Positions 1 to 44,940 of a DNA stretch of 64,000 nucleotides are shown one piece after another. The number at the start of each line of letters is the position of its first letter. Position 1 is the stretch's first letter. The stretch lies in the NCBI RefSeq assembly GCF_053078305.1, contig NZ_CP166879.1, one strand, 5' to 3'. The notes beneath the pieces were generated by a model. It was given only the letters and a program-made list of their open reading frames with translations, had not been told where the DNA came from and did not search any database. The translations under genes and the position numbers were made by a program.

Positions 1-389
1 AAATGGGGATCCGTCTTGAGAATGCCCGAGGGAAAGATCTGTATCAATTCTGGGGAGATATCATCACCAACAAGCTGAACGAGGCGCTCGCAGCACAAGG
101 CGATAATGTGGTGATTAATCTGGCGTCAGATGAGTATTTTAAATCGGTGAAGCCGAAGAAATTGAATGCCGAGATTATCAAGCCGGTGTTCCTCGATGAG
201 AAGAACGGCAAATTTAAGATAATCAGCTTCTACGCTAAGAAAGCACGCGGTCTGATGAGTCGTTTCATTATTGAAAATCGGCTGACCAAACCAGAGCAAC
301 TGACTGGTTTTAATAGCGAAGGTTACTTCTTTGATGAAGCTTCCTCCAGCAATGACGAACTGGTGTTTAAACGCTACGAGCAGCGTTAA
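1..389 (+). CDS. yaaA: YaaA peroxide stress resistance protein (DUF328), 3' portion only; 5' end is outside the window
   Basis: ORF 3..389 is open from the window edge and its translation matches the YaaA C-terminus; stop at 387-389. Confidence 0.9.
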
Positions 390-399
390 GTTTGTAGTC

Positions 400-528
400 A
401 ATGCCGGATGCGGCGTGAACGCCTTATCCGGCCTACAAAAGCATGCAGATTCAATATATTGCAGAATTCACGTAGGCCTGATAAGACGCGCCAGCGTCGC
501 ATCAGGCGCTGAATGCCGGATTGTTACC
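400..528. repeat. REP/BIME-type palindromic repeats (GCCGGATGCGGCGTGAACGCCTTATCCGGCCTAC-like units)
   Basis: Imperfect palindromic units typical of enterobacterial REP elements, in the yaaA-yaaX intergenic region. Confidence 0.8.
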
Positions 529-541
529 CGGCATTTGTCAT

Positions 542-838
542 TTAGCGGTGATGTTTGCCTGGACCATGACCGCCGTGATGATCATGATGAGCTTTCTTAT
601 GGTGACGCGGCGGTGGCAGCGGTCCGTGTGGGTGCCAGCGATTGCCTCGCCATTCATAATGTTGTTTCCACCAGCCGTGGTCGCGCCAGTGACCGCCATC
701 CCAGTAATAACCGCGATTATCACGATCGCCTATCTGTAATTTTACTGACGGGACTAACGTAATTTCCGCAGCCTGCGCTGCCATGGGAGCGACCAGAACC
801 AGGGAAAGTGCGAGTACGATAGATTGCATCTTTTTCAC
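542..838 (-). CDS. yaaX: YaaX, DUF2502 family secreted His/Trp-rich protein
   Basis: 98-aa ORF with N-terminal signal peptide and HGW-rich repeats; recognised as YaaX; synteny next to thrC. Confidence 0.85.
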
Positions 839-1051
839 AGGTTACTCCTTTTATCATTGCCCGTTATGGGTCGATATCCGGAGATTACGCGATGAGAACG
901 GCGGTTGTTATTCTCCGCAATCCTAATCTCTAAGTTACCGCATTTATTGAGAATTTCTCCTTTTTCCCTGTCGTTTCTCTCCATATTTTCTTCACAAAAA
1001 AGCCGGGCTGCATAAAAGCAAATCCGGCCTGATTGAGATAATGAATAGATG

Positions 1052-2338
1052 TTACTGATGATTCATCATCAATTTACGCAACGCAGCAAAATCGGCGGGC
1101 AGATTATGCGAAAGCAAGGGTAAATCGGCACGTTCTGCCAGCTCTTTTGGCAGATCCAACGTTTCACCGAGAATCGCTTCCACGCTCTCTTTAAATTTCG
1201 CCGGATGCGCGGTGCCGAGGAACAAGCCATATTCGCCTGGATTCAACTGGTCACGCAGCGCACGATACGCTACGGCAGCGTGCGGCTCCGAGGTGTAGCC
1301 CAGTTCTTTTAACTCACGCATTGTCTGTTGCGTGGTTTCATCATCCACGGCTGCATAACCCAGCTCTTTCAGTTGCCAGATTTTGCGGCGGAACAACTCT
1401 TCCACACGCGGCCAGTTGTTCGGCTGACTCACGTCCATCGCGTTGGATAACGTCGCCTGAGTCGCTTTGGGTGACCACTGACCGTCGTGCAGGAAACGTG
1501 GCACGGTATCGTTCACGTTGGTCGCAGCAATAAAACGTTTCACCGGCAGACCGAGTGACTTCGCCAGCAGACCCGCCGTCAAATCGCCGAAGTTTCCGCT
1601 TGGCACCGAGACAACCAGCTGGTTGCGCGCTTCCTGCGGCAGCTGCGCAACTGCTTCAAAGTAGTAGCAAATCTGCGCCAGCAACCGGCTGATGTTAATC
1701 GAGTTAGCTGAGTTTAACCCCAGCGCCACTTTCAGCTCTTCATCATCAAACGCCTGCTTCACCAGCGCCTGACAGGCATCGAAATCGCCGTCGATGGCAA
1801 CAGTTTCGATATTGCCGCCCAATGTACAGAACAGTTTTTCTTGCAGTGGACTGATTTTGCCTCGTGGATAGAGGATAACCACTTTCACATTCGGTAAACC
1901 GTAGAAAGCATGAGCCACTGCCGCTCCGGTATCACCGGAGGTCGCGGTCAGAATGGTCACTGGCTTATCGCCCGCAATATGGGTCAGCATTTGTGCCATA
2001 AAGCGACCGCCGAAATCTTTAAATGCCAGCGTTGGCCCGTGGAACAATTCCAGACAACCGACATCGCTTTCAACATTGGCGACCGGAGCCGGGAAGGCAA
2101 ACGCCGCGCGCACGCGCTCTTCCAGGATTTCCTGCGGGATTTCATCACCAATAAACGCCGAGAGGATCTTCGCACTGCGGGTGACAAAATCCAGCTTCAG
2201 CATCTCATCAATTTCAGTCAGGCTGAATTCCGGCAGGTCGTGCGGAAAAAACAGCCCCTGATTTTTGCCCAACCCCTGGGTTACGGCTTGCGCAAAGCTG
2301 ACCTGCTCATTGTGATCTTTCAGATTGTAGAGTTTCAT
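1052..2338 (-). CDS. thrC: Threonine synthase
   Basis: 428-aa ORF recognised as ThrC (MKLYNLKDHNEQVSFAQAV...); operon synteny. Confidence 0.97.
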   Translation of the reverse strand: MKLYNLKDHNEQVSFAQAVTQGLGKNQGLFFPHDLPEFSLTEIDEMLKLDFVTRSAKILSAFIGDEIPQEILEERVRAAFAFPAPVANVESDVGCLELFHGPTLAFKDFGGRFMAQMLTHIAGDKPVTILTATSGDTGAAVAHAFYGLPNVKVVILYPRGKISPLQEKLFCTLGGNIETVAIDGDFDACQALVKQAFDDEELKVALGLNSANSINISRLLAQICYYFEAVAQLPQEARNQLVVSVPSGNFGDLTAGLLAKSLGLPVKRFIAATNVNDTVPRFLHDGQWSPKATQATLSNAMDVSQPNNWPRVEELFRRKIWQLKELGYAAVDDETTQQTMRELKELGYTSEPHAAVAYRALRDQLNPGEYGLFLGTAHPAKFKESVEAILGETLDLPKELAERADLPLLSHNLPADFAALRKLMMNHQ

Positions 2339-3271
2339 TTAGTTTTCCAGTACTCGTGCGCCCGCCGTATCCAGCCGGCAAATATGAACAAAACCTTCCT
2401 GATTTTGCAGGTAGTTCTTACCCAACCAGTCGGCAACGCGCTGGGCGGTATCCGGCTTGTCACACAGAGCGAACAAGGTCGGGCCGGAGCCGGAGATACC
2501 GCTCGCTACCGCGCCGATTTCCGCGACCGCCTGCCGCGCCTGCCGGAAGCCAGGCAGTAACCGTTCACGGTAGGGTTCTGCGATAACATCTTTCATCAGC
2601 TTCGCGGCAAGCTCAGGCTGACGGGAATAGCAGGCGTGAATGAAGCCTGCCAGATGTCGCCCGTGCGCAATGCAATCCTGGCGGCGATACTGCGCCGGTA
2701 AAATAGCCCGGGCTTCTGCCGTCGAGACTTTAATCCCCGGATACGCCAGCACCCACAGCCACTCATCAAACCCTGGCACTTGCTGGCTGATGATGTCGTT
2801 TTCTTCGATCATCAACTGCATACCACCAAGAAAACACGGTGCCACGTTGTCGTAATGAATGCTGCCGGAGATTCGTCCTTCCAGCTCGCCCATCAAAGCC
2901 AGCAAACGAGTGTCATTAAGCGGCTTGCCACAGTGTTCATTCATCGCCATCAGCGCCGCGACCACCGAACAGGCGCTGGAGCCTAAGCCCGAACCGATCG
3001 GCATATTCTTTTCCAGAGTCATCGCCACTGGAATTTGCTTCCCAAGCTCCTGGCAAAAACGCTCCCAGCACTGATAAACGATATTTTCCCGTGGTTCTGA
3101 CGGCAGCTTATCGGCAAAGCGTCCGAGGTTGTTGAGACTGAATGTCTCTGCCGCCTCAACCGTTACTACATCTCCGAGCAATGCACCATCAACGGGTGTC
3201 ACCGCCGCCCCGAGCACATCAAACCCGACGCTCATATTGGCACTGGAAGCCGGGGCATAAACTTTAACCAT
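2339..3271 (-). CDS. thrB: Homoserine kinase
   Basis: 310-aa ORF recognised as ThrB ([21 protein letters not shown]...); directly follows thrA. Confidence 0.97.
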
Positions 3272-3272
3272 G

Positions 3273-5735
3273 TCAGACTCCTAACTTCCATGAGAGGGTA
3301 CGCAGCAGATCGGCAAAGACACCGGCAGCTGTAACGTCATTGCCCGCACCATATCCGCGCAGCACCAACGGCAGCGGCTGATAATAGTGGCTATAAAAGG
3401 CCAGGGCGTTTTCGCCATTTTTCACTTTGAACAGCGGATCATTACCATCCACTTCGGCAATCTTCACGCGGCAGACACCATCTTCATCAATATTGCCAAC
3501 ATAGCGCAAAACTTTTCCTTCATCACGGGCCTTCGCCACGCGCGCGGCAAAGAGATCGTCGAGCTGTGACAGATTCGCCATAAAAGCGGCAACATCACCC
3601 TCGGCGTTAAACTCTGCGGGCAGCACAGGTTCAATTTCAATATCCGCCAGCTCCAGTTCACGTCCCGTTTCACGAGCGAGGATCAATAGTTTACGCGCCA
3701 CATCCATACCAGAAAGATCATCTCGCGGGTCCGGTTCGGTATAACCCATTTCCCGCGCCAGCGTAGTCGCCTCGGAGAAACTCATGCCTTCGTCTAACTT
3801 GCCGAAGATATAAGAAAGCGAACCTGAAAGAATGCCGGAGAACTTCATCAATTCATCACCTGCATTGAGCAGATTTTGCAGGTTCTCAATAACCGGTAAT
3901 CCAGCCCCAACGTTGGTGTCATAGAGGAATTTACGTCGCGATTTTTCCGCCGCATAACGCAACTGATGGTAGTAATCCATCGACGAGGTGTTGGCCTTTT
4001 TATTCGGCGTGACAACGTGGAAACCTTCGCGCAGGAAGTCGGCATATTGATCCGCCACTGCCTGGCTGGAGGTGCAGTCAACAATGACCGGGTTCAGCAG
4101 ATGATATTCTTTCACGAGGCGAATTAAGCGCCCGAGATTAAACGGCTCTTTGGCTTGTGCAAGTTCTTCCTGCCAGTTTTCCAGGTTTAGGCCATGCACA
4201 TTGGTGAGCAGAGCCTTCGAGTTGGCAACGCCGCAGACACGTAAGTCGATATGTTTATTCTTCAACCAGCTTTGCTGACGCTTCAGTTGCTCCAGCAGCG
4301 CACCGCCAACGCCACCGACGCCAATCACAAACACTTCGATAACCTGATCGGTATTGAACAGCATCTGATGAGTAACGCGCACGCCAGTGGTCGCATCATC
4401 GTTATTTACCACGACAGAGATTGAGCGTTCAGAAGATCCCTGAGCAATGGCGACAATGTTGATATTGGCGCGGGCCAGCGCGGCAAAGAATTTCGCCGAG
4501 ATCCCACGCAAGGTGCGCATACCATCACCTACCACCGAGATAATGGCCAGCCGTTCCGTCACCGCCAGCGGCTCCAGTAAGCCTTCTTTCAGTTCCAGGT
4601 AGAACTCTTCCTGCATTGCCCGTTCAGCTCGCACACAGTCGCTTTGCGGAACGCAGAAACTGATACTGTATTCGGAAGATGATTGCGTAATCAGCACCAC
4701 GGAAATACGGGCGCGTGACATTGCAGCAAAGACGCGCGCCGCCATGCCGACCATTCCTTTCATCCCCGGGCCGGAAACGCTGAACATTGCCATGTTATTC
4801 AGATTGGAAATGCCCTTGACCGGTAATTCGTCTTCATCACGGCTGGCACCAATGAGCGTACCTGGAGCTTGAGGATTTCCGGTATTTTTAATCAGGCAAG
4901 GGATCTGGAACTGGGCGATGGGGGTAATGGTGCGGGGGTGAAGAACTTTAGCGCCGAAGTAGGAAAGCTCCATCGCTTCCTGGTAGGACATCGACTTCAA
5001 CAACCTCGCATCGGGCACCTGACGCGGGTCGCAGGTATAAACCCCGTCAACGTCCGTCCAAATCTCGCAACAATCGGCGCGTAAACAGGCAGCCAGAACC
5101 GCCGCGGAGTAGTCGGAACCGTTGCGTCCAAGCACCACCAGTTCGCCTTTTTCATTACCGGCGGTGAAACCTGCCATCAGCACCATGTGATCAGCCGGAA
5201 TACGACTTGCCGCAATACGGCGGGTGGACTCAGCAATATCGACGGTAGATTCGAGGTAATGCCCCACTGCCAGTAGTTTTTCGACCGGATCGATAACGGT
5301 AACGTTGTGACCACGCGCTTCTAACACGCCGGCCATAATGGCGATCGACATTTTCTCGCCACGGCAAATCAGCGCAGCGTTAATGCTATCCGGGCACTGC
5401 CCTAACAAACTAATGCCATGCAGGACATGTTTTATTTGGGCAAATTCCTGGTCGACGAAAGTTTTCAATTGCGCCAGCGGGAATCCCGGCTGGGCGGCGG
5501 CGAGTCCCGTCAGAAGTTCGGCAAAAATACGTTCGGCATCGCTGATATTGGGTAAAGCATCCTGGCCGCTAATGGTTTTTTCAATCATCGCCACCAGGTG
5601 GTTGGTTATTTTGGCGGGGGCAGAGAGGACGGTGGCCACCTGCCCCTGCCTGGCATTGCTTTCCAGAATATCGGCAACCCGCAGAAAACGTTCTGCATTT
5701 GCCACTGATGTACCGCCGAACTTCAACACTCGCAT
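3273..5735 (-). CDS. thrA: Bifunctional aspartokinase I / homoserine dehydrogenase I
   Basis: ORF 3273..5777; start placed at the internal Met giving [17 protein letters not shown] (820 aa). Confidence 0.96.
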
Positions 5736-5761
5736 GGTTGTTACCTCGTTACCTTTGGTCG

Positions 5762-5800
5762 AAAAAAAAGCCCGCACTGTCAGGTGCGGGCTTTTTTCTG
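5762..5800 (-). terminator. thr operon attenuator (rho-independent terminator hairpin with U-tract)
   Basis: On the minus strand AAGCCCGCACCTGACAGTGCGGGCTTTTTTTT lies between thrL and thrA. Confidence 0.85.
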
Positions 5801-5815
5801 TGTTTCCTGTACGCG

Positions 5816-5884
<69 letters not shown>

Positions 5885-5919
5885 TGTTGTGTACTCTGTA
5901 ATTTTTATCTGTCTGTGCG

Positions 5920-5962
5920 CTATGCCTATATTGGTTAAAGTATTTAGTGACCTAAGTCAATA
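5920..5962 (-). promoter_or_regulatory. Probable thr operon promoter
   Basis: Minus-strand TTGACT hexamer (complement of 5955-5960) with an AT-rich -10 region upstream of thrL; exact -10 not resolved. Confidence 0.45.
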
Positions 5963-6094
5963 AAATTTTAATTTACTCACGGCAGGTAACCAGTTCAGAA
6001 GCTGCTGTCAGAGACTCTTTTTTTAATCCACACAGAGACATATTGCCCGTTGCAGTCAGAATGAAAAGCTGAAAAATACTTACTAAGGCGTTTT

Positions 6095-6781
6095 TTATTT
6101 GGTGATATTTTTTTCAATATCATGCAGCAAACGGTGCAACATTGCCGTGTCTCGTTGCTCTAAAAGCCCCAGGCGTTGTTGTAACCAGTCGACCAGTTTT
6201 ATGTCATCTGCCACTGCCAGAGTCGTCAGCAATGCCATGGCTCGTTCGCGTAAAGCTTGCAGTTGATGTTGGTCTGCCGTTGTGTCACTTTTCGTCGGTT
6301 GTTGTATTAATGTTGCTAATTGATAGCAATAGACCATCACCGCCTGCCCAAGATTGAGCGAAGGATAATCCGCCACCATCGGCACACCAGTAAGAACGTC
6401 AGCCAACGCTAACTCTTCGTTAGTCAGCCCGGAATCTTCGCGACCAAACACCAGCGCGGCATGGCTCATCCATGAAGATTTTTCCTCTAACAGCGGCACC
6501 AGTTCTACTGGCGTGGCGTAGTAATGATATTTCGCCCGACTGCGTGCAGTGGTGGCGACAGTGAAATCGACATCGTGTAACGATTCAGCCAGCGTCGGGA
6601 AAACTTTAATATTATCAATAATATCACCAGATCCATGTGCGACCCAGCGAGTGGCTGGCTCCAGATGTGCCTGACTATCGACAATCCGCAGTTCGCTAAA
6701 CCCCATCGTTTTCATTGCCCGCGCCGCTGCCCCAATATTTTCTGCTCTGGCGGGTGCGACCAGAATAATCGTTATACGCAT
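6095..6781 (-). CDS. lasT: SpoU-family tRNA/rRNA methyltransferase
   Basis: ORF 6095..6802; start placed at the internal Met giving MRITIILVAPARAENIGAAARAMKTMGF (228 aa). Confidence 0.9.
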   Translation of the reverse strand: MRITIILVAPARAENIGAAARAMKTMGFSELRIVDSQAHLEPATRWVAHGSGDIIDNIKVFPTLAESLHDVDFTVATTARSRAKYHYYATPVELVPLLEEKSSWMSHAALVFGREDSGLTNEELALADVLTGVPMVADYPSLNLGQAVMVYCYQLATLIQQPTKSDTTADQHQLQALRERAMALLTTLAVADDIKLVDWLQQRLGLLEQRDTAMLHRLLHDIEKNITK

Positions 6782-7180
6782 ATTGCCACTCTTCTTGACC
6801 AAATGACCGCGAACAGGGTGATCACTGTCAACTTATTACGCGGTGCGAATTTACAAATCCTTAACGTAAGTCGCAGAAAAAGCCCTTTACTTAGCTTAAA
6901 AAAGGCTAAACTATTTCCTGACTGTACTAACGGTTGAATTGTTAAAAAATGCTACATATCCTTCTGTTTACTTAGGATAATTTTATAAAAAATAAATCTC
7001 GACAATTGGATTCACCACGTTTATTAGTTGTATGATGCAACTAGTTGGATTATTAAAATAATGTGACGAAAGCTAGCATTTAGATACGATGATTTCATCA
7101 AACTGTTAACGTGCTACAATTGAACTTGATATATGTCAACGAAGCGTAGTTTTATTGGGTGTCCGGCCCCTCTTAGCCTG

Positions 7181-7321
7181 TTATGTTGCTGTTAAAATGG
7201 TTAGGATGACAGCCGTTTTTGACACTGTCGGGTCCTGAGGGAAAGTACCCACGACCAAGCTAATGATGTTGTTGACGTTGATGGAAAGTGCATCAAGAAC
7301 GCAATTACGTACTTTAGTCAT
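7181..7321 (-). CDS. yjjY: Small protein YjjY (46 aa)
   Basis: Hand translation of the minus strand: MTKVRNCVLDALSINVNNIISLVVGTFPQDPTVSKTAVILTILTAT; below the 60-aa ORF-track cutoff; sits between arcA and lasT. Confidence 0.7.
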   Translation of the reverse strand: MTKVRNCVLDALSINVNNIISLVVGTFPQDPTVSKTAVILTILTAT

Positions 7322-7416
7322 GTTACGCCGATCATGTTAATTTGCAGCATGCATCAGGCAGGTCAGGGACTTTTGTACTTCCTGTTTCGATTTAGTTGGC
7401 AATTTAGGTAGCAAAC

Positions 7417-8133
7417 ATGCAGACCCCGCACATTCTTATCGTTGAAGACGAGTTGGTAACACGCAACACGTTGAAAAGTATTTTCGAAGCGGAAGGCTAT
7501 GATGTTTTCGAAGCGACAGATGGCGCGGAAATGCATCAGATCCTCTCTGAATATGACATCAACCTGGTGATCATGGATATCAATCTGCCGGGTAAGAACG
7601 GTCTTCTGTTAGCGCGTGAACTGCGCGAGCAGGCGAATGTTGCGTTGATGTTCCTGACTGGCCGTGACAACGAAGTCGATAAAATTCTCGGCCTCGAAAT
7701 CGGTGCAGATGACTACATCACCAAACCGTTCAACCCGCGTGAACTGACGATTCGTGCACGCAACCTGCTGTCCCGTACCATGAATCTGGGTACTGTCAGC
7801 GAAGAACGTCGTAGCGTTGAAAGCTACAAGTTCAATGGTTGGGAACTGGACATCAACAGCCGTTCGTTGATCGGCCCTGATGGCGAGCAGTACAAGCTGC
7901 CGCGCAGCGAGTTCCGCGCCATGCTTCACTTCTGTGAAAACCCAGGCAAAATTCAGTCCCGTGCTGAACTGCTGAAGAAAATGACCGGCCGTGAGCTGAA
8001 ACCACACGACCGTACTGTAGACGTGACGATCCGCCGTATTCGTAAACATTTCGAATCTACGCCGGATACGCCGGAAATCATCGCCACCATTCACGGTGAA
8101 GGTTATCGCTTCTGCGGTGATCTGGAAGATTAA
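7417..8133 (+). CDS. arcA: Aerobic respiration control response regulator ArcA
   Basis: 238-aa ORF recognised as ArcA ([41 protein letters not shown]...). Confidence 0.97.
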
Positions 8134-8149
8134 TCGGCTTTACCACCGT

Positions 8150-8188
8150 CAAAAAAAACGGCGCTTTTTAGCGCCGTTTTTATTTTTC
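8150..8188. terminator. Bidirectional rho-independent terminator between convergent arcA and creD
   Basis: Hairpin AACGGCGC-TTTTTA-GCGCCGTT flanked by an A-tract upstream and a T-tract downstream. Confidence 0.75.
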
Positions 8189-8192
8189 AAAC

Positions 8193-9545
8193 TTATTTCC
8201 AGATACGTAATTCATCGTCCGTTGTAACGTCTTTACTGGCTTTCATTTTCGGCAGTGAAAACGCATACCAGTCGATATTACGAGTCACAAACATCATGCC
8301 GGCCAGCGCCACCACCAGCACACTGGTTCCCAACAACAGCGCGCTATCGGCAGAGTTGAGCAGTCCCCACATCACACCATCCAGCAACAACAGCGCGAGG
8401 GTAAACAACATGCTGTTGCGCCAGCCTTTCAATACCGCCTGCAAATAAATACCGTTCATTAACGCCCCAATCAGACTGGCGATTATCCATGCCACGGTAA
8501 AACCGGTATGTTCAGAAAGCGCCAGCAAGAGCAAATAAAACATCACCAATGAAAGCCCCACCAGCAAATATTGCATTGGGTGTAAACGTTGCGCGGTGAG
8601 CGTTTCAAAAACAAAGAACGCCATAAAAGTCAGCGCAATCAGCAGAATGGCATACTTAGTCGCCCGGTCAGTTAATTGGTATTGATCGGCTGGCGTCGTC
8701 ACTGCGACGCTAAACGCGGGGAAGTTTTCCCAGCCGGTATCATTGCCTGAAGCAAAACGCTCACCGAGATTATTAGCAAACCAGCTGCTTTGCCATTGCG
8801 CCTGAAAACCTGACTCACTAACTTCCCGTTTGGCTGGTAGAAAATCACCTAAAAAACTGGGATGCGACCAGTTGCTGGTTAAGGTCATTTCGCTATTACG
8901 CCCCGCAGGCACCACAGAAAGATCGCCGGTACCGCTTAAATTCAGGGCCATATTCAGCTTCAGGTTCTGCTTGCGCCAGTCCCCTTCGGGTAAAGGGATA
9001 TGCACGCCCTGCCCGCCTTGCTCTAACCCGGTGCCGGGTTCAATGGTCAGCGCCGTTCCGTTAACTTCAGGCGCTTTCACCACACCAATACCACGCGCAT
9101 CCCCGACGCTAATCACAATAAATGGCTTGCCTAAGGTGATATTTGGCGCGTCGAGTTCGCTAAGACGCGAAACATCGAAATCGGCTTTTAGCGTTAAATC
9201 ACTGTGCCAGACCTGACCGGTATAAATCCCTATCTTGCGTTCTTCCACGTTCTGATTGCCATCAACCATCAATGACTCAGGTAACCAAAAATGGATAAAA
9301 CTTCGTTTCCGCTCCACGGTTTTATCCTCTTCCTGCACCGTATAAAGCTCGGTCACAGGAATAGCGATAAGCGGCCCAACGAGTTTTTGCGGCCCGCTGG
9401 TACTTTGGCGAATCGCATCTTCCACATCGCTACGGTAATCGGCACGTTCGACAATCACCTGCCGAATCAGCATTATCGGAATCAACAACAGCAATACTGC
9501 ACCAAACAGGGTGGTCATTTTCCAGAACAGGGGGGATTTCAACAT
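8193..9545 (-). CDS. creD: Inner membrane protein CreD
   Basis: 450-aa ORF; multi-pass membrane protein; synteny creABCD. Confidence 0.93.
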   Translation of the reverse strand: MLKSPLFWKMTTLFGAVLLLLIPIMLIRQVIVERADYRSDVEDAIRQSTSGPQKLVGPLIAIPVTELYTVQEEDKTVERKRSFIHFWLPESLMVDGNQNVEERKIGIYTGQVWHSDLTLKADFDVSRLSELDAPNITLGKPFIVISVGDARGIGVVKAPEVNGTALTIEPGTGLEQGGQGVHIPLPEGDWRKQNLKLNMALNLSGTGDLSVVPAGRNSEMTLTSNWSHPSFLGDFLPAKREVSESGFQAQWQSSWFANNLGERFASGNDTGWENFPAFSVAVTTPADQYQLTDRATKYAILLIALTFMAFFVFETLTAQRLHPMQYLLVGLSLVMFYLLLLALSEHTGFTVAWIIASLIGALMNGIYLQAVLKGWRNSMLFTLALLLLDGVMWGLLNSADSALLLGTSVLVVALAGMMFVTRNIDWYAFSLPKMKASKDVTTDDELRIWK

Positions 9546-9602
9546 AGTCTTCTCCTTTGCAATGGCAGCAGGATACGAAGGCTATGTGGTAAGAATTTGA
9601 AG

Positions 9603-11027
9603 CTATGTGAAGTGACGGTGAAGTCGAAGCGAGGCCAGCACGCCACCTTCCTGCACGTTGCGCAGAGTGACTTCGCCGTTAAACAAACGGGCGACCTCAC
9701 TGACAAACGCCAACCCCAGACCGCTGCTTTTTTGCCCATTAGCACGCGGCAAAGAGTAAAAGCGTTCAAAAATACGTGACAGCGCGTAGTCAGGAATACC
9801 ACTACCGGTATCCAGCACCTTAAGCGTGACGTGTTCATGATCCACTTCGGCGCTTAGCGTTATGCGACCGCTCTCAGGGGTAAAATCGATGGCGTTATCC
9901 AGTAAATTCCCCAGCGCCTGCTCCAGTAACGCCGGTTCAGCAGCAACGTTAACCTCAGTAGGCATAACATGCAAAGTGATGTTTTTTTCTGCCAACTGCA
10001 CGGTGCGCGCTTCGCTGACGCGGCGAAATAATGCCGCCACATCAACAGCAGTCAGAACTACTTCCTGACGATTCTCCAGTCTTGCCTGGCGTAGTAACGT
10101 TTCTACCAATGCCTGCATACGCGCATTTTGGGTCAGAATGTTGTTGGTAAAACGAGCCACCACTTCCGGTGGCGGACCTTCGCGTAAAATTTCCGCCGCG
10201 CCACGAATCGCCGCCAGTGGGCTTTTTAGCTCATGGGTTAACGCATAAACATACTGCTCAATATAGTTTTTCCCTTCCAGCTTCACGCGCATACTTTCCA
10301 GCGCCTGCGCAAGCTTACGCAACTCGCTACTGCCGAGTTCAGGAAGAGGAACGGGCTTATTGTCAGTGACGGAATCGGCATAGCGAGTGAGCCGGGCAAT
10401 GGAGCGGTTGATCCACCAAACCATGCCTGCGCCAATCACCAGTGCAATCCCCAGCAAAATGGCGCTGGCCCATAAAATTCGCCGCTCGCTGCGCTTAATG
10501 ACCGGAGCCATCGCCGCGTTCGGTTTGCCTACGCTCAAAACGCCAATAAGCCGCGAGCCGTCCATAATCGGCGCGGCAACATACATCACCGAACTTTCGG
10601 GATCGGCAGGATTTTGCAACGTGCTGCGCGCACCATACTGACCACGCAACGTTAGCCAGACGTCATTCCAGCGCGAATAATCCTGTCCAACGGCTTTATT
10701 TGCCGAATCGAACAATACTTTGCCCTGCGCATCGGTCATATAGACATGATATTCATTGCGCACTTTGTTAATGCCACCGATATTGGCGCGAAACGGGCGA
10801 TATTGTAGCTGATTAAACGCCTGCGCCAGTTGCCCATGCGTTGGGTCCCCAGAGAGCAAATCGGGACGCGCCAGCTCCGCCAGCAACGTTGCGGTATCGA
10901 TTAACGTCCCCTCCGTTGCTCTTCGCACGCCCGGTTTAACTTCTTTGACAAAAATAGCCAGTACGAACCAGGCCGCCACCGCCACCAGTAAAAAATAGCC
11001 CAGCAGCAACCGCATGCCGATACGCAT
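9603..11027 (-). CDS. creC: Sensor histidine kinase CreC
   Basis: 474-aa ORF with HisKA/HATPase features; overlaps the creB stop. Confidence 0.95.
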   Translation of the reverse strand: MRIGMRLLLGYFLLVAVAAWFVLAIFVKEVKPGVRRATEGTLIDTATLLAELARPDLLSGDPTHGQLAQAFNQLQYRPFRANIGGINKVRNEYHVYMTDAQGKVLFDSANKAVGQDYSRWNDVWLTLRGQYGARSTLQNPADPESSVMYVAAPIMDGSRLIGVLSVGKPNAAMAPVIKRSERRILWASAILLGIALVIGAGMVWWINRSIARLTRYADSVTDNKPVPLPELGSSELRKLAQALESMRVKLEGKNYIEQYVYALTHELKSPLAAIRGAAEILREGPPPEVVARFTNNILTQNARMQALVETLLRQARLENRQEVVLTAVDVAALFRRVSEARTVQLAEKNITLHVMPTEVNVAAEPALLEQALGNLLDNAIDFTPESGRITLSAEVDHEHVTLKVLDTGSGIPDYALSRIFERFYSLPRANGQKSSGLGLAFVSEVARLFNGEVTLRNVQEGGVLASLRLHRHFT

Positions 11028-11716
11028 TACAGGCCCCTCAGGCTATATCCCATGCCGCGATGAGTATTAATCGGAGAAAGATCGGGGTTGATGGCGCGCA
11101 GCTTGGCACGCAACGTTTTAATGTGGGTATCGACGGTGCGATCGTAGGTGTCCTGCGCATCTTCCCACACGCTATCCATTAGTTGCTGGCGGGACCAGAC
11201 GCGGCCTGGCGACTTGAGTAACGTCTTCAGCAATAAAAACTCATACCGCGTCAGCGTTAATGGCGTGTCAAACCAGCTGATCTGCGCCGCGGGTTCATTC
11301 AATTCAAAATGACCAATACGGATGACGGGAGACGGCGACGAGAACTTCTTCACCCGACGCAGTAAGGTGCGCACCCTGGCGCACACTTCGCGGGGTGAAA
11401 ACGGTTTAGCCACATAGTCGTCAGCGCCAATTTCCAGCCCAAGCAGGCGATCGACCTCTTCACTTCGGGCCGTCAGGAACAGTACAGGTAACGCCGGATG
11501 GAGCGCCAGTAACTGGCGGCACAATTCAAAGCCGCTGATATCAGGCAAACCAACATCGAGAATCATGACGTCGGGAACCTGCTGGCGAGCTTTATCCAGC
11601 ACCGGCAAGCCTCGCTCAAAGACCTCGACGGCAAAACCTTCCTGCTGCAACATGTAGACCAGCGTGTCGGCTATCCCTTGCTCATCTTCCACTAACCAGA
11701 CCGTTTCCCGTTGCAT
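11027..11716 (-). CDS. creB: Response regulator CreB
   Basis: 229-aa OmpR-family ORF (MQRETVWLVEDEQGIADTLVYMLQQEGF...). Confidence 0.95.
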   Translation of the reverse strand: MQRETVWLVEDEQGIADTLVYMLQQEGFAVEVFERGLPVLDKARQQVPDVMILDVGLPDISGFELCRQLLALHPALPVLFLTARSEEVDRLLGLEIGADDYVAKPFSPREVCARVRTLLRRVKKFSSPSPVIRIGHFELNEPAAQISWFDTPLTLTRYEFLLLKTLLKSPGRVWSRQQLMDSVWEDAQDTYDRTVDTHIKTLRAKLRAINPDLSPINTHRGMGYSLRGL

Positions 11717-11728
11717 AAATCGCCTCTG

Positions 11729-12202
11729 TTATTGCCGCCACGGCATGACAGGAACCGCGCTAATCGCGTTTTTCGGCGAACCTTCTACAACTTTGTCGGA
11801 GTAAGCCAGATAAGCGAGCGCGTTGCGTTTGGCGTCATAAAAGCGCACGACCTGTAACGACTTAAAGACCAGGGACGTGCGTTTTTTGAATACTACCTCG
11901 CCCTGAGCTTTGCCGTTTTTAATACGATCCGACAGTTCAATCGGCCCGACTTGCTGACAAGAAATAGCCGCATCGGAGGTATCTTCCGCCAGACCCAATC
12001 CCCCTTTAATACCACCTGTTTTCGCCCGGCTCACATAACAGGTGACATTTTTCACATCGGGATCGTCAAAGGCTTCCACAACAATTTTGTGATCCGGGCC
12101 GATCATTTTAAATACGGTGTCGACCGAACCAATCTCTTCTGCATGAGCCAATGGCCCCAGCATTATCAGGCTTAAAGACAGGATCAAATGCTTGTATTTC
12201 AT
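11729..12202 (-). CDS. creA: CreA periplasmic protein
   Basis: 157-aa ORF with signal peptide ([21 protein letters not shown]...). Confidence 0.93.
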
Positions 12203-12412
12203 ATTGTTACCATTTTTATCTATTACACGAGCAATTAGTTCGTCACGGTAAATAACATATTGATTAAGAACAAAATCTCAATACTTTTATTTCCGTCAAG
12301 ACCTAAAACATACTCTACTAAGAAAAAAACACTGAATGCTAAAACAGCAAAAAATGCTATTATCCAATTACCTGATGTCAGGTGCTCGTTGTTGAAAGGA
12401 TGAGGATATTTT

Positions 12413-13282
12413 ATGGATCAGGCCGGCATTATTCGCGACCTTTTAATCTGGCTGGAAGGTCATCTGGATCAGCCCCTGTCGCTCGACAATGTAGCGGCGA
12501 AAGCAGGTTATTCCAAGTGGCACTTACAGAGAATGTTTAAAGATGTCACTGGCCATGCTATTGGCGCGTATATTCGTGCTCGTCGTTTGTCGAAATCGGC
12601 GGTCGCACTACGCCTGACTGCGCGTCCGATTCTGGACATCGCGCTGCAATACCGCTTCGACTCTCAACAGACATTTACCCGCGCATTCAAGAAGCAGTTT
12701 GCCCAGACTCCTGCACTTTACCGCCGTTCTCCTGAATGGAGCGCCTTTGGTATTCGCCCGCCGCTGCGTCTGGGTGAATTCACCATGCCAGAGCATAAAT
12801 TTGTCACCCTGGAAGATACGCCGCTGATTGGTGTTACCCAGAGCTACTCCTGTTCGCTGGAGCAAATCTCTGATTTCCGCCATGAAATGCGTTATCAGTT
12901 CTGGCACGATTTTCTCGGCAACGCGCCGACCATTCCGCCAGTGCTCTACGGCCTGAATGAAACGCGTCCGAGTCAGGATAAAGACGACGAACAAGAGGTA
13001 TTCTATACCACCGCGTTAGCCCAGGATCAGGCAGATGGCTATGTACTGACGGGGCATCCGGTGATGCTGCAGGGCGGCGAATATGTGATGTTTACCTATG
13101 AAGGTCTGGGAACCGGCGTGCAGGAGTTTATCCTGACGGTATACGGAACGTGCATGCCAATGCTCAACCTGACGCGCCGTAAAGGTCAGGATATTGAGCG
13201 ATACTACCCGGCAGAAGACGCCAAAGCGGGAGATCGCCCAATTAATCTGCGCTGTGAACTGCTGATTCCGATCCGTCGTTAA
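12413..13282 (+). CDS. rob: AraC/XylS-family right-origin-binding protein Rob
   Basis: 289-aa ORF recognised as Rob (MDQAGIIRDLLIWLEGHLDQPLSLDNVAAKAGYSKWHLQRMFK...). Confidence 0.96.
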   Translation: MDQAGIIRDLLIWLEGHLDQPLSLDNVAAKAGYSKWHLQRMFKDVTGHAIGAYIRARRLSKSAVALRLTARPILDIALQYRFDSQQTFTRAFKKQFAQTPALYRRSPEWSAFGIRPPLRLGEFTMPEHKFVTLEDTPLIGVTQSYSCSLEQISDFRHEMRYQFWHDFLGNAPTIPPVLYGLNETRPSQDKDDEQEVFYTTALAQDQADGYVLTGHPVMLQGGEYVMFTYEGLGTGVQEFILTVYGTCMPMLNLTRRKGQDIERYYPAEDAKAGDRPINLRCELLIPIRR

Positions 13283-13926
13283 CGCTGCAGCTCATCTAAT
13301 GCAGGGGCGTCCAGATGCGAGATGTCCCCTGCGGTTTCAACGACCCAGCCAGACGCCAGCCACAGGCTTTCCTGATAATCCACGCGCGAAATAGAACAGT
13401 TACGCAGACGTAAGCGGCGCTCTGCCCATGCTGGTAATCCGAGAATCGTACTCACCAGGCATCCCAGTGCAATACCATGGCTCACCAGCAGCGGTCGGCT
13501 TCCCTGCGGTAAGTCCCGGCAAGATTCCAGAGCCGCATTGACGCGATCGCTGAGCTCCTGCATTGACTCGCCTTCAGGAATACGCCCGTCAACGGTGCCA
13601 TTGACCAGCTGCCGACGCCAGTTCTCTTCTTCTTCGGTCAGAGAATCGATATGTCTTTTTTCCAGCACACCCATGTTTAATTCACGCAGGCGAGAATCAA
13701 AGATGATGTCACAGCCGCAGGCCTGGGCGATGATTTCCGCCGTACGCCGGGTGCGTCCTAAATCGCTACTGATGATATGCGTAATGCCAAGCTCTTTGGC
13801 ACGGGTTGCCACCTGCATCGCCTGTTGCTCACCTTTGGCGGTCAGCGGGCTGTCAGACTGGCCCTGAATACGTCGCTCGGCGTTCCACTGCGTTTCACCG
13901 TGGCGGACAAGGTATACCTGTAACAT
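13279..13926 (-). CDS. gpmB: Probable phosphoglycerate mutase GpmB
   Basis: 215-aa ORF (MLQVYLVRHGETQWNAERRIQGQSDSPLT...), histidine phosphatase motif RHGE; its stop overlaps the rob stop on the opposite strand. Confidence 0.95.
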   Translation of the reverse strand: MLQVYLVRHGETQWNAERRIQGQSDSPLTAKGEQQAMQVATRAKELGITHIISSDLGRTRRTAEIIAQACGCDIIFDSRLRELNMGVLEKRHIDSLTEEEENWRRQLVNGTVDGRIPEGESMQELSDRVNAALESCRDLPQGSRPLLVSHGIALGCLVSTILGLPAWAERRLRLRNCSISRVDYQESLWLASGWVVETAGDISHLDAPALDELQR

Positions 13927-13965
13927 GCTTTTTTTCCGTATACTGCTGTAACGTTAATTTTCTGA

Positions 13966-14490
<525 letters not shown>

Positions 14491-14494
14491 GCGC

Positions 14495-14978
<484 letters not shown>

Positions 14979-15052
14979 TTAGCGGGGGAAGCAAAATGCC
15001 TCCCCCGGTTGTACTCGCTAAAGAGTACGATAGCATATCATAAACGTGCGGA

Positions 15053-16990
15053 TCAGTAACGACGTCCCCATTCCGTGGCACTCATCAACGTCGGTTTATC
15101 CCCCATGAAATAGCGGTAGTAAGCGTCATAAGCCAGCACGTTCTTCACATAACCGCGCGTCTCGGAGAATGGAATACTCTCGACAAATGCCACTGCGTCG
15201 ATACGCCCGGCGCTGTTGCCAAGCCAGGTTCGCACCCGCCCTGGTCCGGCGTTATAAGCTGCTGAGGAGAAAATACGATTATTGCCAAACTGCTGATAAA
15301 CATATTGCAGGTAACTGGTGCCAATGTTGATATTCGTTTCCGGATCCAGCAATTGCCCAAGACTGCTATAACCGGGAATAGAGAACATCTTCACCGTATG
15401 GGTCGCTGTACCAGGCATAATCTGCATCAGGCCGCTGGCCCCTACCGGTGATTTCACTTTCGGATTCCAGGCGCTCTCCTGACGAGCAATCGCCATCGCA
15501 TAGCTTTGCGGGATCTCCTTACCGCTGGTGTAGCGTTTGAAAAGATCGTTGTAAGCCAGCGGGAATCGCTCTTCCAGATGATCCCACAGCTTCCCGGCGA
15601 TCGTTGCCTGAACGCTAAGATCCCACCATTGGTTGTTGAAAGCATACCGCGCCAGTTGAGCTTGCTCTGTTTTTGACTTGCTCTTCACCAGATTGGCCCA
15701 CTCGCTACGCGCGGTGTTATCGAGATTCCAGTACATCAACTCGCGCACGCGCGCCATCTCCGGCCCCTCAGTCAGGGCGCTGTCAACATTCTGCGGCGCT
15801 TTATCAATCTTCAGCTCATACTCTTCGCCGATGCGTTGTGCTGCAACCATCGGGTAGAAACCACGCTGTTGCATGAGTTGATGCAAAATCTCTTTCGCTT
15901 CAGCTTCACGTCCGCGTTCCAGCAATAAATCCGCCTGCCAGTAACGCCATTCATCTTTCTCTTTCGCCTCCATCGGCAAACGCGCCAGCCAGGTATTCAG
16001 GCCGCGACGATCACCGGTGCCAAGCGCCATTCGCACACGGCGTTCAATCAACGACGTGGATTGCGAGCGCATAATGGCGTCATCGCGCCATTTCGCCTGC
16101 TCGTCGGTGACATCGTTGCCCATCAAACGCCAGGCGACGATATCGCGCAGCTCCTGAATCTGATCTTCATTAAGCTGCTGCGCCTGGGCAAGCGATGGGA
16201 TCATCAGCCGTGCACTCTCAGCATCCTGCCGCGCCACACTGGCAAACGCCACCGCCGCCATTTGACGGGTAAAATCGGTCGCTCCGGTTGTACGCGCGAA
16301 GGTCAGTACCGTATTAGGGTTGTTCGCCAGTGAAATGATTGCCGAGGCGATAGTCTGGTAATCGGCAGGCATCTGCCCTGCCAGCACTGTTACCAGGCCA
16401 GTGTTACCCGCTTTCATCGCCAGACGGATACGCTCTAAATACGCCAGCGGATCTTGTTTACCTGACGCACGCCAGACACTAAATAACTTGTCACAGGCGT
16501 TAGGCTGGCTCTTGCCGGTTAGCCACAGCTCTTTCGCCCCTTGCCAGGCTTCTTCACTCTGCCCGGTGTTCCATTTCGCATAGTAGTAATTACATTGTGC
16601 TTCGGTAGCTCCGGGCTTTTCCGGGCTAAAGGCTAACAGGCCACGCCAGTCTTCACGCCGCGCCAGTTCATTGACGAAACGAGATTGCAGCGTGCGAGCG
16701 GGAGGAAGCGTGGGGTTAGCGCGAACAAAGTTAGTGACCGTCACCGCCGGTTGATTCATCAGGTCATCGGTGATCTGGCGGTATTCCAGGTAGGGATAAA
16801 GCGGATAATCCTTCAGTCCAGGCATCATTTGTTCGACCACATCCATTTGTCGATTATCCCAGGCCTGCTTGATTTGCGCGTAACGACTACGCTGCTCATC
16901 CAGTGAGTCGGCTCGCGCCACGCTGCTGACCGTCAGCAGACAGACACCGGCAGCCAACAGCCGCCAGGTAACTTGTTTGGCTTTTTCCAC
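15053..16990 (-). CDS. slt: Soluble lytic murein transglycosylase Slt70
   Basis: ORF 15053..17020; start placed at the in-frame GTG giving MEKAKQVTWRLLAAGVCLLTVSSVARA (645 aa). Confidence 0.95.
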   Translation of the reverse strand: MEKAKQVTWRLLAAGVCLLTVSSVARADSLDEQRSRYAQIKQAWDNRQMDVVEQMMPGLKDYPLYPYLEYRQITDDLMNQPAVTVTNFVRANPTLPPARTLQSRFVNELARREDWRGLLAFSPEKPGATEAQCNYYYAKWNTGQSEEAWQGAKELWLTGKSQPNACDKLFSVWRASGKQDPLAYLERIRLAMKAGNTGLVTVLAGQMPADYQTIASAIISLANNPNTVLTFARTTGATDFTRQMAAVAFASVARQDAESARLMIPSLAQAQQLNEDQIQELRDIVAWRLMGNDVTDEQAKWRDDAIMRSQSTSLIERRVRMALGTGDRRGLNTWLARLPMEAKEKDEWRYWQADLLLERGREAEAKEILHQLMQQRGFYPMVAAQRIGEEYELKIDKAPQNVDSALTEGPEMARVRELMYWNLDNTARSEWANLVKSKSKTEQAQLARYAFNNQWWDLSVQATIAGKLWDHLEERFPLAYNDLFKRYTSGKEIPQSYAMAIARQESAWNPKVKSPVGASGLMQIMPGTATHTVKMFSIPGYSSLGQLLDPETNINIGTSYLQYVYQQFGNNRIFSSAAYNAGPGRVRTWLGNSAGRIDAVAFVESIPFSETRGYVKNVLAYDAYYRYFMGDKPTLMSATEWGRRY

Positions 16991-17200
16991 AAGCGCATCC
17001 TCTAAGTGTAAATACATCAATGCAGCGTCATGCCGCGTAATAGATTTATGCTAACCAGTCATTGCCGTTTACGCCACGTTACGGACACTTTTTTACTTTT
17101 ACTGCGAAGGTGATCGACCAACTGGGATTAGGCGGGGAAAAAGGCTACACTTCGCCTTTGAAAACTCATCATCACGATAAACATAGAGGCGAAGTCCAAC

Positions 17201-18868
17201 GTGGCTCAATTCGTTTATACCATGCATCGTGTCGGCAAAGTTGTTCCGCCGAAACGTCATATTTTGAAAAACATCTCTCTGAGTTTCTTCCCTGGGGCAA
17301 AAATTGGTGTCCTGGGTCTGAATGGCGCGGGTAAGTCCACCCTGCTGCGCATTATGGCGGGCATTGATAAAGACATCGAAGGTGAAGCGCGTCCGCAGCC
17401 AGACATCAAGATTGGTTATCTGCCGCAGGAACCGCAGCTGAACCCGGAACACACCGTGCGTGAGTCCATTGAAGAAGCGGTTTCAGAAGTGGTTAACGCC
17501 CTGAAACGCCTGGATGAAGTGTATGCGCTGTACGCCGATCCGGATGCCGATTTTGACAAGCTGGCCGCTGAACAAGGCCGTCTGGAAGAGATCATTCAGG
17601 CTCACGACGGTCATAATCTGAACGTACAGCTGGAGCGTGCGGCGGATGCGCTACGTCTGCCGGACTGGGACGCGAAAATCGCTAACCTCTCCGGTGGTGA
17701 GCGTCGTCGCGTGGCGTTGTGCCGCCTGCTGCTGGAAAAACCAGACATGCTGCTGCTCGACGAACCGACCAACCACCTGGATGCCGAATCCGTGGCCTGG
17801 CTGGAACGCTTCCTGCACGACTTCGAAGGCACCGTGGTGGCGATTACCCACGACCGTTACTTCCTCGATAACGTTGCGGGCTGGATCCTCGAACTTGACC
17901 GCGGTGAAGGTATTCCGTGGGAAGGTAACTACTCCTCCTGGCTGGAGCAGAAAGATCAGCGTCTGGCGCAGGAAGCTTCACAAGAAGCGGCGCGTCGTAA
18001 GTCGATCGAGAAAGAGCTGGAGTGGGTACGTCAGGGAACTAAAGGCCGCCAGTCGAAAGGTAAAGCACGTCTGGCACGCTTTGAAGAGCTGAACAGCACC
18101 GAATACCAGAAACGTAACGAAACCAACGAACTGTTTATTCCACCTGGACCGCGTCTGGGCGATAAAGTGCTGGAAGTCAGCAACCTGCGTAAATCCTACG
18201 GCGATCGCCTGCTGATTGATGACCTGAGCTTCTCGATCCCGAAAGGGGCGATCGTCGGGATCATCGGTCCGAACGGCGCGGGTAAATCGACCCTGTTCCG
18301 TATGATCTCCGGTCAGGAACAGCCGGACAGCGGCACCATCACTTTGGGTGAAACGGTGAAACTGGCATCGGTTGATCAGTTCCGTGACTCAATGGATAAC
18401 AGCAAAACCGTTTGGGAAGAAGTTTCAGGCGGGCTGGATATTATGAAGATCGGCAACACCGAGATGCCAAGCCGCGCCTACGTTGGCCGCTTTAACTTTA
18501 AAGGGGTTGATCAGGGTAAACGCGTTGGTGAACTCTCCGGTGGTGAGCGCGGTCGTCTGCATCTGGCGAAGCTGCTGCAGGTTGGCGGCAACATGCTGCT
18601 GCTAGACGAACCAACCAACGACCTGGATATCGAAACCCTGCGCGCGCTGGAAAACGCCCTGCTGGAGTTCCCGGGCTGTGCGATGGTTATCTCGCACGAC
18701 CGTTGGTTCCTCGACCGTATCGCCACGCACATTCTGGATTACCAGGATGAAGGTAAAGTTGAGTTCTTCGAAGGTAACTTTACCGAGTACGAAGAGTACA
18801 AGAAACGCACGCTGGGCGCAGACGCGCTGGAGCCGAAGCGTATCAAGTACAAGCGTATTGCGAAGTAA
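17201..18868 (+). CDS. ettA: Energy-dependent translational throttle ABC-F ATPase EttA
   Basis: 555-aa ORF with two ABC cassettes (Walker A GLNGAGKST and GPNGAGKST; signature LSGGERRR and LSGGERGR). Confidence 0.97.
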   Translation: MAQFVYTMHRVGKVVPPKRHILKNISLSFFPGAKIGVLGLNGAGKSTLLRIMAGIDKDIEGEARPQPDIKIGYLPQEPQLNPEHTVRESIEEAVSEVVNALKRLDEVYALYADPDADFDKLAAEQGRLEEIIQAHDGHNLNVQLERAADALRLPDWDAKIANLSGGERRRVALCRLLLEKPDMLLLDEPTNHLDAESVAWLERFLHDFEGTVVAITHDRYFLDNVAGWILELDRGEGIPWEGNYSSWLEQKDQRLAQEASQEAARRKSIEKELEWVRQGTKGRQSKGKARLARFEELNSTEYQKRNETNELFIPPGPRLGDKVLEVSNLRKSYGDRLLIDDLSFSIPKGAIVGIIGPNGAGKSTLFRMISGQEQPDSGTITLGETVKLASVDQFRDSMDNSKTVWEEVSGGLDIMKIGNTEMPSRAYVGRFNFKGVDQGKRVGELSGGERGRLHLAKLLQVGGNMLLLDEPTNDLDIETLRALENALLEFPGCAMVISHDRWFLDRIATHILDYQDEGKVEFFEGNFTEYEEYKKRTLGADALEPKRIKYKRIAK

Positions 18869-18877
18869 TGCGTAAAA

Positions 18878-18915
18878 TGCCGGATGCGGCGCGCCAGCAC
18901 CGCATCCGGTATTAG
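18878..18915. repeat. REP-like palindrome, probable ettA terminator
   Basis: GCCGGATGCGGCG...CCGCATCCGGT hairpin 10 bp after the ettA stop. Confidence 0.7.
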
Positions 18916-19023
18916 TTAAATGATTAGTCCCCGGAAAAAGGCAGAATTTTCTTTTAGTGTATTAGCTCAGATGCGGACTGACATCTCAAATCAAGCGGGA
19001 ACTCATGATTCCCGCTTAACGTT

Positions 19024-19911
19024 CTATTCACCGCGCAGAATCTGGCGGAAATGGGAAACCAACGGACGTTGGTTGGCTTTATGCCAGGCTGCCCATAATT
19101 GCGTTGAATAATTCATCCACGGCAATTCACGTAATACCACCCCTTCCGGCGCATTATGACGCAGACTATGTTGAATTAAGGCCAGACCTAATCCCGCAGC
19201 GACCAGACCTAATGCCGTGAGGGGTTCACCCGCTTCCAGGCGAATATCAGGATTAAACCCGGCGTTAACACAGGCGGCGACAAAATGATCGCGAGAATGC
19301 GCATCGTCGTTATGAATCACCGCAATCCACTGCTCATCGCCAAGTTGTGACGCGACAAGGTTTTCCTCCTGCGCCAGAGGATGATTTTGCGGTAAGGCCA
19401 ACAACATTCGATCATCCAGAACCTGAATATATTCCAGATCCTGCTCGCTGTCGGTGGGCGGCGTATCGACCAGAGAAAAATCGAGACTGCGCTGGCGCAG
19501 GCCTTCAATCTGGGTAGCCGGTGGTTGGCTGTAAAGTGCGATATGCACATTCGGACGCGATACACGTAACGTACGTAGCGCCGTAGAAAGCACACCGGAA
19601 TGCATGGCGTTTTCGATATAGCCAATACACAAGCCACCATCTTCCCCCCGTCCCAGGCGTTTGCCTAACGACTCCAGGCGGTTGGCGTGTGTCAGCAACG
19701 AACGTGTTTCGGCAAGGAATGTCTGTCCATCAGCGGTCAGGCGAATGCGCTGCTGATTACGCTCAAACAGCGTCAGCCCCAGTCGTTCTTCCAGTTGTGC
19801 AATCTGGCGGCTCAGCGGCGATTGCGAGATATGTAATCGCTCGGCTGCGCGTCCCACGTGCTCTTCTTCTGCGACCACCACGAAGTACTTCAGTTGGCGT
19901 AAATCAATCAT
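19024..19911 (-). CDS. LysR-family transcriptional regulator (accessory island)
   Basis: ORF 19024..20004; start placed at the Met giving MIDLRQLKYFVVVAEEEHVGRAAERLHISQSPLSRQIAQLEE (LysR HTH); divergent from the AKR-SDR-SRPBCC operon. Confidence 0.85.
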   Translation of the reverse strand: MIDLRQLKYFVVVAEEEHVGRAAERLHISQSPLSRQIAQLEERLGLTLFERNQQRIRLTADGQTFLAETRSLLTHANRLESLGKRLGRGEDGGLCIGYIENAMHSGVLSTALRTLRVSRPNVHIALYSQPPATQIEGLRQRSLDFSLVDTPPTDSEQDLEYIQVLDDRMLLALPQNHPLAQEENLVASQLGDEQWIAVIHNDDAHSRDHFVAACVNAGFNPDIRLEAGEPLTALGLVAAGLGLALIQHSLRHNAPEGVVLRELPWMNYSTQLWAAWHKANQRPLVSHFRQILRGE

Positions 19912-19976
19912 GTTAGACCTCAAAGGACTTAAGTCAGACGAATTATGTCCTATCAAGTCACAACCTCGCAAGGTAT

Positions 19977-19992
19977 TGTGATCCACGTCACA
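19977..19992. promoter_or_regulatory. Perfect TGTGA-N6-TCACA palindrome (CRP-like core or regulator operator) in the divergent promoter region
   Basis: TGTGATCCACGTCACA read directly from the sequence between the LysR start (19911) and the AKR start (20045). Confidence 0.35.
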
Positions 19993-20044
19993 GGGCGATA
20001 GCAAAAAAACGCCCTAACCCAAACCGAATAATTGAGGACATCTT

Positions 20045-21055
20045 ATGAGCATTAAAAATTTACTCCCCGGCAAAATTGGCTTAGGCGGCGCACCACTTGG
20101 CAACATGTTCCGTGCCATTCCGGAAGAAGAGGCCCACGCCACCGTGAGCGAAGCCTGGAACCTGGGTGTGCGTTACTTTGATACCGCGCCGCTGTACGGC
20201 TCTGGCCTTTCTGAAATCCGCATGGGTGAAGCGCTGTCTCAGTATCCACGCGATGAATACGTTCTGAGTAGCAAAGTCGGTCGCATCATGCTGGACGAAA
20301 TGGAAGATCCGGCAAAACGGGATTTCGGTGAAAAAGGTGGCCTGTTCGAACACGGCCTGAAAAACAAAATTCTGAATGACTACTCTGCTGACGCCACTCT
20401 GCGCTCGATTGAAGACAGCCTGAAACGCCTGAAAACAGACCGTCTGGATATTGTCTGGATCCACGACCCGGCGCAGGACTTCTACGGTGACAGCTGGCTG
20501 GAGCAGTTCAACATTGCCCGTACCGGTGCATTTCGTGCGCTGACGCGTTTGCGTGACGAAGGTGTGATTAAAGCCTGGGGACTGGGTGTGAACCGCGTCG
20601 AACCTTGCGAACTGACGCTGGCGCTGGACGAACCGAAGCCGGATGCGTTCCTGCTGGCGGGGCGTTATTCCCTGCTGGATCACGAACGTGCGCTGCAACG
20701 CCTGATGCCAGAAGCACTGGAACAGAACGTGGATATCGTTGTGGGCGGTCCATACAGCTCTGGCGTACTGGCAGGCGGCGAGCACTTTGAATATCAGAAA
20801 GCCTCTGCGGCCATCCAGCAGAAAGTGGCGCAAATTAACGCCATTGCCACACGTTTCAATGTGAACGTTAAAGCGGCTGCGCTGCAGTTCGCGCTGGCAA
20901 ACCCGGCCGTTGCAGCGGTTATTCCTGGCTCCAGCCGTCCTGGTCGTATGGCAGAAGATCTGGCTGCACTGAATGCGCCTGTTCCGGCTGAATTCTGGGC
21001 AGAAATGCGCCGTCAAAATCTGGTTGCGGAAAACGCTCCGCTGCCGACCCGTTAA
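20045..21055 (+). CDS. Aldo-keto reductase family oxidoreductase (accessory island)
   Basis: 336-aa ORF with AKR-like N-terminus (GLGGAPLGNMF...YFDTAPLYGSG...); RBS GAGGA upstream. Confidence 0.85.
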   Translation: MSIKNLLPGKIGLGGAPLGNMFRAIPEEEAHATVSEAWNLGVRYFDTAPLYGSGLSEIRMGEALSQYPRDEYVLSSKVGRIMLDEMEDPAKRDFGEKGGLFEHGLKNKILNDYSADATLRSIEDSLKRLKTDRLDIVWIHDPAQDFYGDSWLEQFNIARTGAFRALTRLRDEGVIKAWGLGVNRVEPCELTLALDEPKPDAFLLAGRYSLLDHERALQRLMPEALEQNVDIVVGGPYSSGVLAGGEHFEYQKASAAIQQKVAQINAIATRFNVNVKAAALQFALANPAVAAVIPGSSRPGRMAEDLAALNAPVPAEFWAEMRRQNLVAENAPLPTR

Positions 21056-21074
21056 TCAACCAGGTGAGAAAACG

Positions 21075-21872: not shown

Positions 21873-21897
21873 CCCTATAAATTAAGAGAAAATTATC

Positions 21898-22314: not shown

Positions 22315-22471
22315 TGCGATCGACAGGCGTCGGCACGTCCGGCGTCTGATTATTAACAAAAACAGAATAGTCTATTGTCATTTGTATCATTTATGTTATC
22401 AGACAGCAGGCGTATTCTCTCCCCATCGCGTTAATAAACGCCAAACAATTAAGACACTCTGGAATATAAAC

Positions 22472-22684: not shown

Positions 22685-22708
22685 TCGCGCGAGGAACCCA
22701 TTACGTAA

Positions 22709-29608: not shown

Positions 29609-29639
29609 CTCGCTGATTAAAATATCCAGGGAAGGAAAT

Positions 29640-44804: not shown

Positions 44805-44940
<136 letters not shown>

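Follow-up and report, generated by a model that had tools for sequence, protein, structure and literature searches.

The window, as the whole 64,000-nt stretch of DNA analysed here is called, carries on its minus strand yjtD (lasT), a spacer of 213 bp, thrL, the Thr leader with its attenuator, and thrA, in this order. All of them lie on one strand, with yjtD upstream and thrL and thrA downstream, which is the arrangement by which the locus is recognised. The locus is the same in Escherichia coli K-12 MG1655, as are the gene order arcA, yjjY, yjtD, thrL, thrA, thrB, and thrC and the length of the yjtD–thrL spacer. Coordinates of the features are given in Table 1. The stop codon of yjtD, TAA, is at 6095–6097, and the gene differs from its K-12 counterpart in 13 of 687 nt and in 4 aa. 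In thrA, 46 nt differences against no aa difference indicate strong purifying selection, and the ThrA protein and the leader peptide are both identical to those of K-12. The hexamers of the putative thr promoter are also the same as in K-12, and we take them to be thrLp of the K-12 literature. The terminator hairpin of the attenuator is located at 5764–5797, and its T-run has eight T, one fewer than the nine T of K-12. Between the yjtD stop and the thrA start, the window and K-12 differ at three places only, namely two substitutions and this one missing T.

Table 1. Features of the yjtD–thrA region in the window, with the point at which K-12 numbering begins
Feature	Position	Strand	Basis or remark
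yjtD (lasT), SpoU-family tRNA/rRNA methyltransferase CDS	6095..6781	-	Pfam SpoU_methylase, E = 5e-28; K-12 and ET350 annotation
Whole yjtD–thrL intergenic region, 213 bp	5882..6094	-	Two variant bases are its sole differences from K-12
Conventional K-12 numbering origin	6070..6071	none	Direct comparison with NC_000913.3
70-mer homologous to MG1655 1-70, non-coding spacer, yjtD–thrL intergenic	6001..6070	-	68/70
Variant base, K-12 G58 to C	6013	-	Also in ET350 and in all 469 genomes with the exact 70-mer
Variant base, K-12 T64 to C	6007	-	Also in all 469 genomes with the exact 70-mer
Likely thr promoter, TTGACT-17 bp-TAACCA	5932..5960	-	Read from the sequence; K-12 111-116 and 134-139
thrL leader peptide, 21 aa	5816..5881	-	Identical to K-12; annotation
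thr leader and attenuator RNA	5761..5880	-	Rfam RF00506, 121 bits, E = 4.9e-23
thrA	3273..5735	-	46 of 2,463 nt different from K-12, all synonymous; 0 aa

Read on the minus strand, window 6001–6070 is AGCTTTTCATTCTGACTGCAACGGGCAATATGTCTCTGTGTGGATTAAAAAAAGAGTCTCTGACAGCAGC, letter for letter the 70-mer quoted in the initial annotation. Its first base is 25 bp past the stop codon of yjtD, and about 40 bp separate its end from the -35 hexamer. The 70-mer had been taken there for the start of the K-12 sequence in reverse complement with about two mismatches. When compared directly with positions 1–70 of the fetched MG1655 record (NC_000913.3), 68 of 70 bases were equal and exactly two were mismatched, which means that the proposed mismatches are real; exact identity to MG1655 was not observed. 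A match of 68/70 is expected by chance anywhere in the window with a probability of about 2e-33, and it therefore represents homology. Window 6070 is the equivalent of MG1655 bp 1, and window 6071 that of the last MG1655 base, bp 4,641,652, the plus strand of K-12 being the minus strand of the window; the conventional numbering origin is thus inside the window, as had been proposed. Window 6071–6075 in reverse complement is TTTTC, the five terminal bases of MG1655. The proposed alignment to the last 100 bp of MG1655 was identical throughout (100/100, reverse complement of window 6071–6170), and over the last 300 bp there were five mismatches, every one within yjtD. The K-12 counterpart of the whole spacer is NC_000913.3 4,641,629–4,641,652 plus 1–189, and the numbering point is situated 24 bp past the stop codon of yjtD; the putative thr promoter follows after about 110 bp.

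Window 6001–6075 is almost certainly the stretch of the yjtD(lasT)–thrL spacer in which the arbitrary numbering of K-12 starts, a site already known as such. According to Touchon et al. 2009 (PMC2617782), the first position of their genomes was set to match that of MG1655, in the lasT–thrL intergenic region. The MG1655 circle was opened arbitrarily within this spacer for numbering, with no biological event at that point.

The initial annotation had further held that the thr side and the lasT/arcA side are contiguous chromosomal DNA. In local BLAST, window 72–6070 was aligned with K-12 1–6000 (98.33% identity, 99 mismatches in 6 kb) and window 6071–18893 with K-12 4,628,830–4,641,652 (98.61% identity, 178 mismatches in 12.8 kb), and no gap, duplication, or extra base was seen at 6070/6071 relative to circular K-12. 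Two junction probes, one of 400 bp centred on the junction and the other of 1,100 bp, were searched in 5,426 complete RefSeq E. coli genomes. The 400-bp probe was matched in 5,424 of these; it was unbroken within the record in 4,918 genomes and split between the two record ends in 506, and the split shows that the latter assemblies were opened at the point of the K-12 convention. The 1,100-bp probe gave the same picture, with 4,885 genomes holding it unbroken, and among the matches listed it was 100% identical in 17 genomes. As the junction is internal in 4,918 genomes and merely cut in 506, it represents contiguous chromosome and not an assembly join, and the claim of contiguity holds. An artefact of assembly or circularisation, with two record ends stitched together into a non-native sequence, would look alike, and 506 complete genomes do end exactly here. 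Nevertheless, this explanation is highly improbable, because genomes with records starting elsewhere (the 4,918 above) have it unbroken inside the record at 98–100% identity, and because a join would have to leave 6070/6071 without duplication, gap, or added base. When window 1–25000 was used as the query, only 385 genomes covered at least 80% of it; this is due to a rare 5.1-kb island described below and not to the junction.

No signal was found in the spacer that would mark the numbering point. The Rfam scan of the whole window placed no family in the spacer and recognised only the Thr leader, three tRNA-Leu, and REP-derived sRNA families. Within 5650–6250, the hairpin of the thr attenuator was the sole terminator-like site, and no promoter was called there by the consensus scan under a strict rule. 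Folding of the spacer RNA was worse than that of shuffled controls for both alleles (z = +2.2 for the window and +2.0 for K-12). Neither a structured RNA nor an intrinsic terminator was thus recognised in 6001–6075 by Rfam, by folding against shuffles, or by a hairpin with a T-run.

The word "origin" could suggest that replication or Hfr transfer begins here, and beyond this word there is nothing in favour of such a reading. To the left and right of 6070 alike the GC skew is negative, and its sign does not change there; it is about 0 inside the island at 18894–24027 and negative elsewhere in the window. Five DnaA-box-like motifs were counted in the window against 4.96 expected, none of them within 5 kb of 6070. 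The combination of a skew sign change with a cluster of DnaA boxes, by which an oriC-type origin is recognised, was accordingly absent at the numbering point. The E. coli oriC is placed near 84 min, far from thr, and the choice of the numbering start is traced to the placing of thr at 0 min of the genetic map. A biological origin at this site has practically no probability at all. The numbering origin is a bookkeeping landmark, not a biological feature.

The window belongs to an E. coli strain other than K-12. Every block alignable to K-12, about 57 kb, is 98.2–98.7% identical, and gene content differs in three respects: an island of 5,134 bp and a segment of 821 bp are present, and hipH is missing. 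Neither the near-100% identity over tens of kb that marks the K-12 lineage (MG1655, W3110, and derivatives) nor the K-12 gene content (hipH, no nadR–ettA island, and a btsT–tsr spacer of 137 bp) was found. A divergence of about 1.5% is ordinary between E. coli lineages. The strain had been called close to but probably not K-12; the second part stands, on the identities of 98.33% and 98.61% and on gene content, while "close" applies only at the level of the species. That the window is K-12 itself, its mismatches arising from errors of sequencing or of the initial annotation, has the 68/70 equality of the 70-mer in its favour. It is nonetheless extremely improbable. Both mismatches stand against the fetched K-12 record, and the same two bases recur in 469 independent genomes. 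In addition, the flanks differ from K-12 by about 1.5% (the 99 and 178 mismatches given above), and the island and the 821-bp segment are absent from K-12, as is the K-12 hipH from the window. In comparison with MG1655, the differences comprise bases 58 and 64, the attenuator T-run one T shorter, the diverged flanking genes, and the wider gene content.

The most similar complete genomes are 99.2–99.6% identical and are not relatives of K-12. Strain ET350 (NZ_CP100966.1) has an identical 359-bp yjtD-to-thrA spacer; it differs from the window by 97 mismatches over 22.9 kb (99.58% identity) and by the absence of the 1,015-bp segment at window 22947–23961. On the far side, Combat11I9 is 99.2% identical. 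With 99.58% (ET350) and 99.2% as the best values, the source strain is absent from the 5,426 complete RefSeq genomes.

The island at 18894–24027 is 5,134 bp long and separates ettA from nadR; the corresponding interval of K-12 measures about 139 bp. Of the 5,426 complete genomes of E. coli, 482 have the island. It carries genes for a LysR regulator, an aldo/keto reductase, an SDR oxidoreductase, an SRPBCC protein, and a DUF1471 protein. Inside it, 22947–23961 is a variable slot, occupied in other genomes by a TauE/SafE or a GNAT gene. Here the slot encodes a DUF2846 lipoprotein of 155 aa (23356–23823, minus strand, Pfam E = 2e-23), adjoined by an N-terminal fragment of an Oxidored_FMN (nemA-like) gene at 22733–22924. 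The DUF2846 segment of about 940 bp was present in none of the complete E. coli chromosomes searched; the nearest relative, with 71.8% protein identity, is on a non-mobilizable E. coli plasmid of 8.6 kb.

The hipH/yjjJ gene of K-12 (1,332 bp, a HipA-like kinase toxin) is replaced at 29608–29894 by 287 bp encoding, on the opposite strand and beside lplA, an HTH_3 (XRE-type) protein of 83 aa. As this state was found in 4,073 of 5,426 genomes, it is the common one and that of K-12 the unusual one. The third difference, at 59877–60697, is a segment of 821 bp that is shared by 365 of 5,426 genomes and occupies the interval from btsT to tsr, which in K-12 measures 137 bp. Its ORF at 60046–60588 on the plus strand codes for 180 aa, annotated as a hypothetical protein. 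The product has a D...ExK-like motif and a sub-threshold match to the N-terminal domain of TnsA-like endonucleases (E = 0.068), and may have a PD-(D/E)XK nuclease fold.

Mutually related clusters of REP/BIME-type repeats were located at 400–514, 14486–14634, 36995–37185, and 44813–44907. Rfam recognised ES036/CssrF at 437–479 and naRNA4/CssrE at 37025–37103 on both strands. Dozens of short matches per genome in the 25-kb search are due to these repeats; an insertion sequence had been suspected from them, and self-comparison revealed the REP/BIME-type repeats instead. Three tandem tRNA genes on the plus strand at 45062–45381 correspond to leuV, leuP, and leuQ of K-12 (tRNA-Leu CAG), and the two outer copies are 100% identical over 89 bp.

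The two variant bases are natural. The 70-mer of the window was found exactly in at least 469 complete E. coli genomes, among them O157:H7 strains such as PV15-279, and the 70-mer of K-12 exactly in at least 4,252, including BL21-type genomes, B2 (Nissle), and many other lineages. Both megablast searches with the 70-mers list 4,807 genomes, 617 fewer than were matched by the 400-bp probe, which makes the allele counts lower bounds. Two genomes ranked low in the 400-bp search were inspected by eye; both carry the K-12 70-mer exactly, and the shortfall of 617 thus looks technical. The C58/C64 form of the spacer is a minority haplotype that occurs naturally.

Both variants are upstream of the putative thr promoter, at distances of 47 and 53 bp from its -35 hexamer; relative to the thr transcription start reported for K-12, position 148, they are at about -84 and -90. 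Judged from this position and from the lack of predicted structure, they are most likely neutral. An effect at such a distance, on the upstream promoter DNA or on formation of the yjtD 3' end, is formally conceivable, and the linked pair would then be functional, influencing thr transcription through far-upstream promoter DNA or the yjtD 3' end. Such a role would fit the tight linkage, as two main haplotypes account for 469 and 4,252 of the 4,807 genomes listed. It would also fit the observation that the 213-bp spacer is invariant apart from C58 and C64, whereas the flanking genes differ by about 1.9%. Linkage of sites 6 bp apart is, however, expected from common descent. At 47–53 bp upstream of this hexamer, the two sites are past the usual range of UP elements. 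No structure or terminator is predicted at C58/C64, and in no fold do the two changes compensate each other. A functional role is thus very unlikely, and neutrality is the preferred reading; if the role were real, it would act in roughly 10% of E. coli genomes.

As a landmark, the numbering start serves orientation only: on the minus strand, the window corresponds to K-12 from about 4,588,160 to the end and then from 1 to about 6,070. With exactly the K-12 70-mer present in 4,252 or more genomes, a match to the start of the K-12 sequence is not diagnostic of K-12; its first 70 bases are common to most E. coli and should not be used for recognising this strain.
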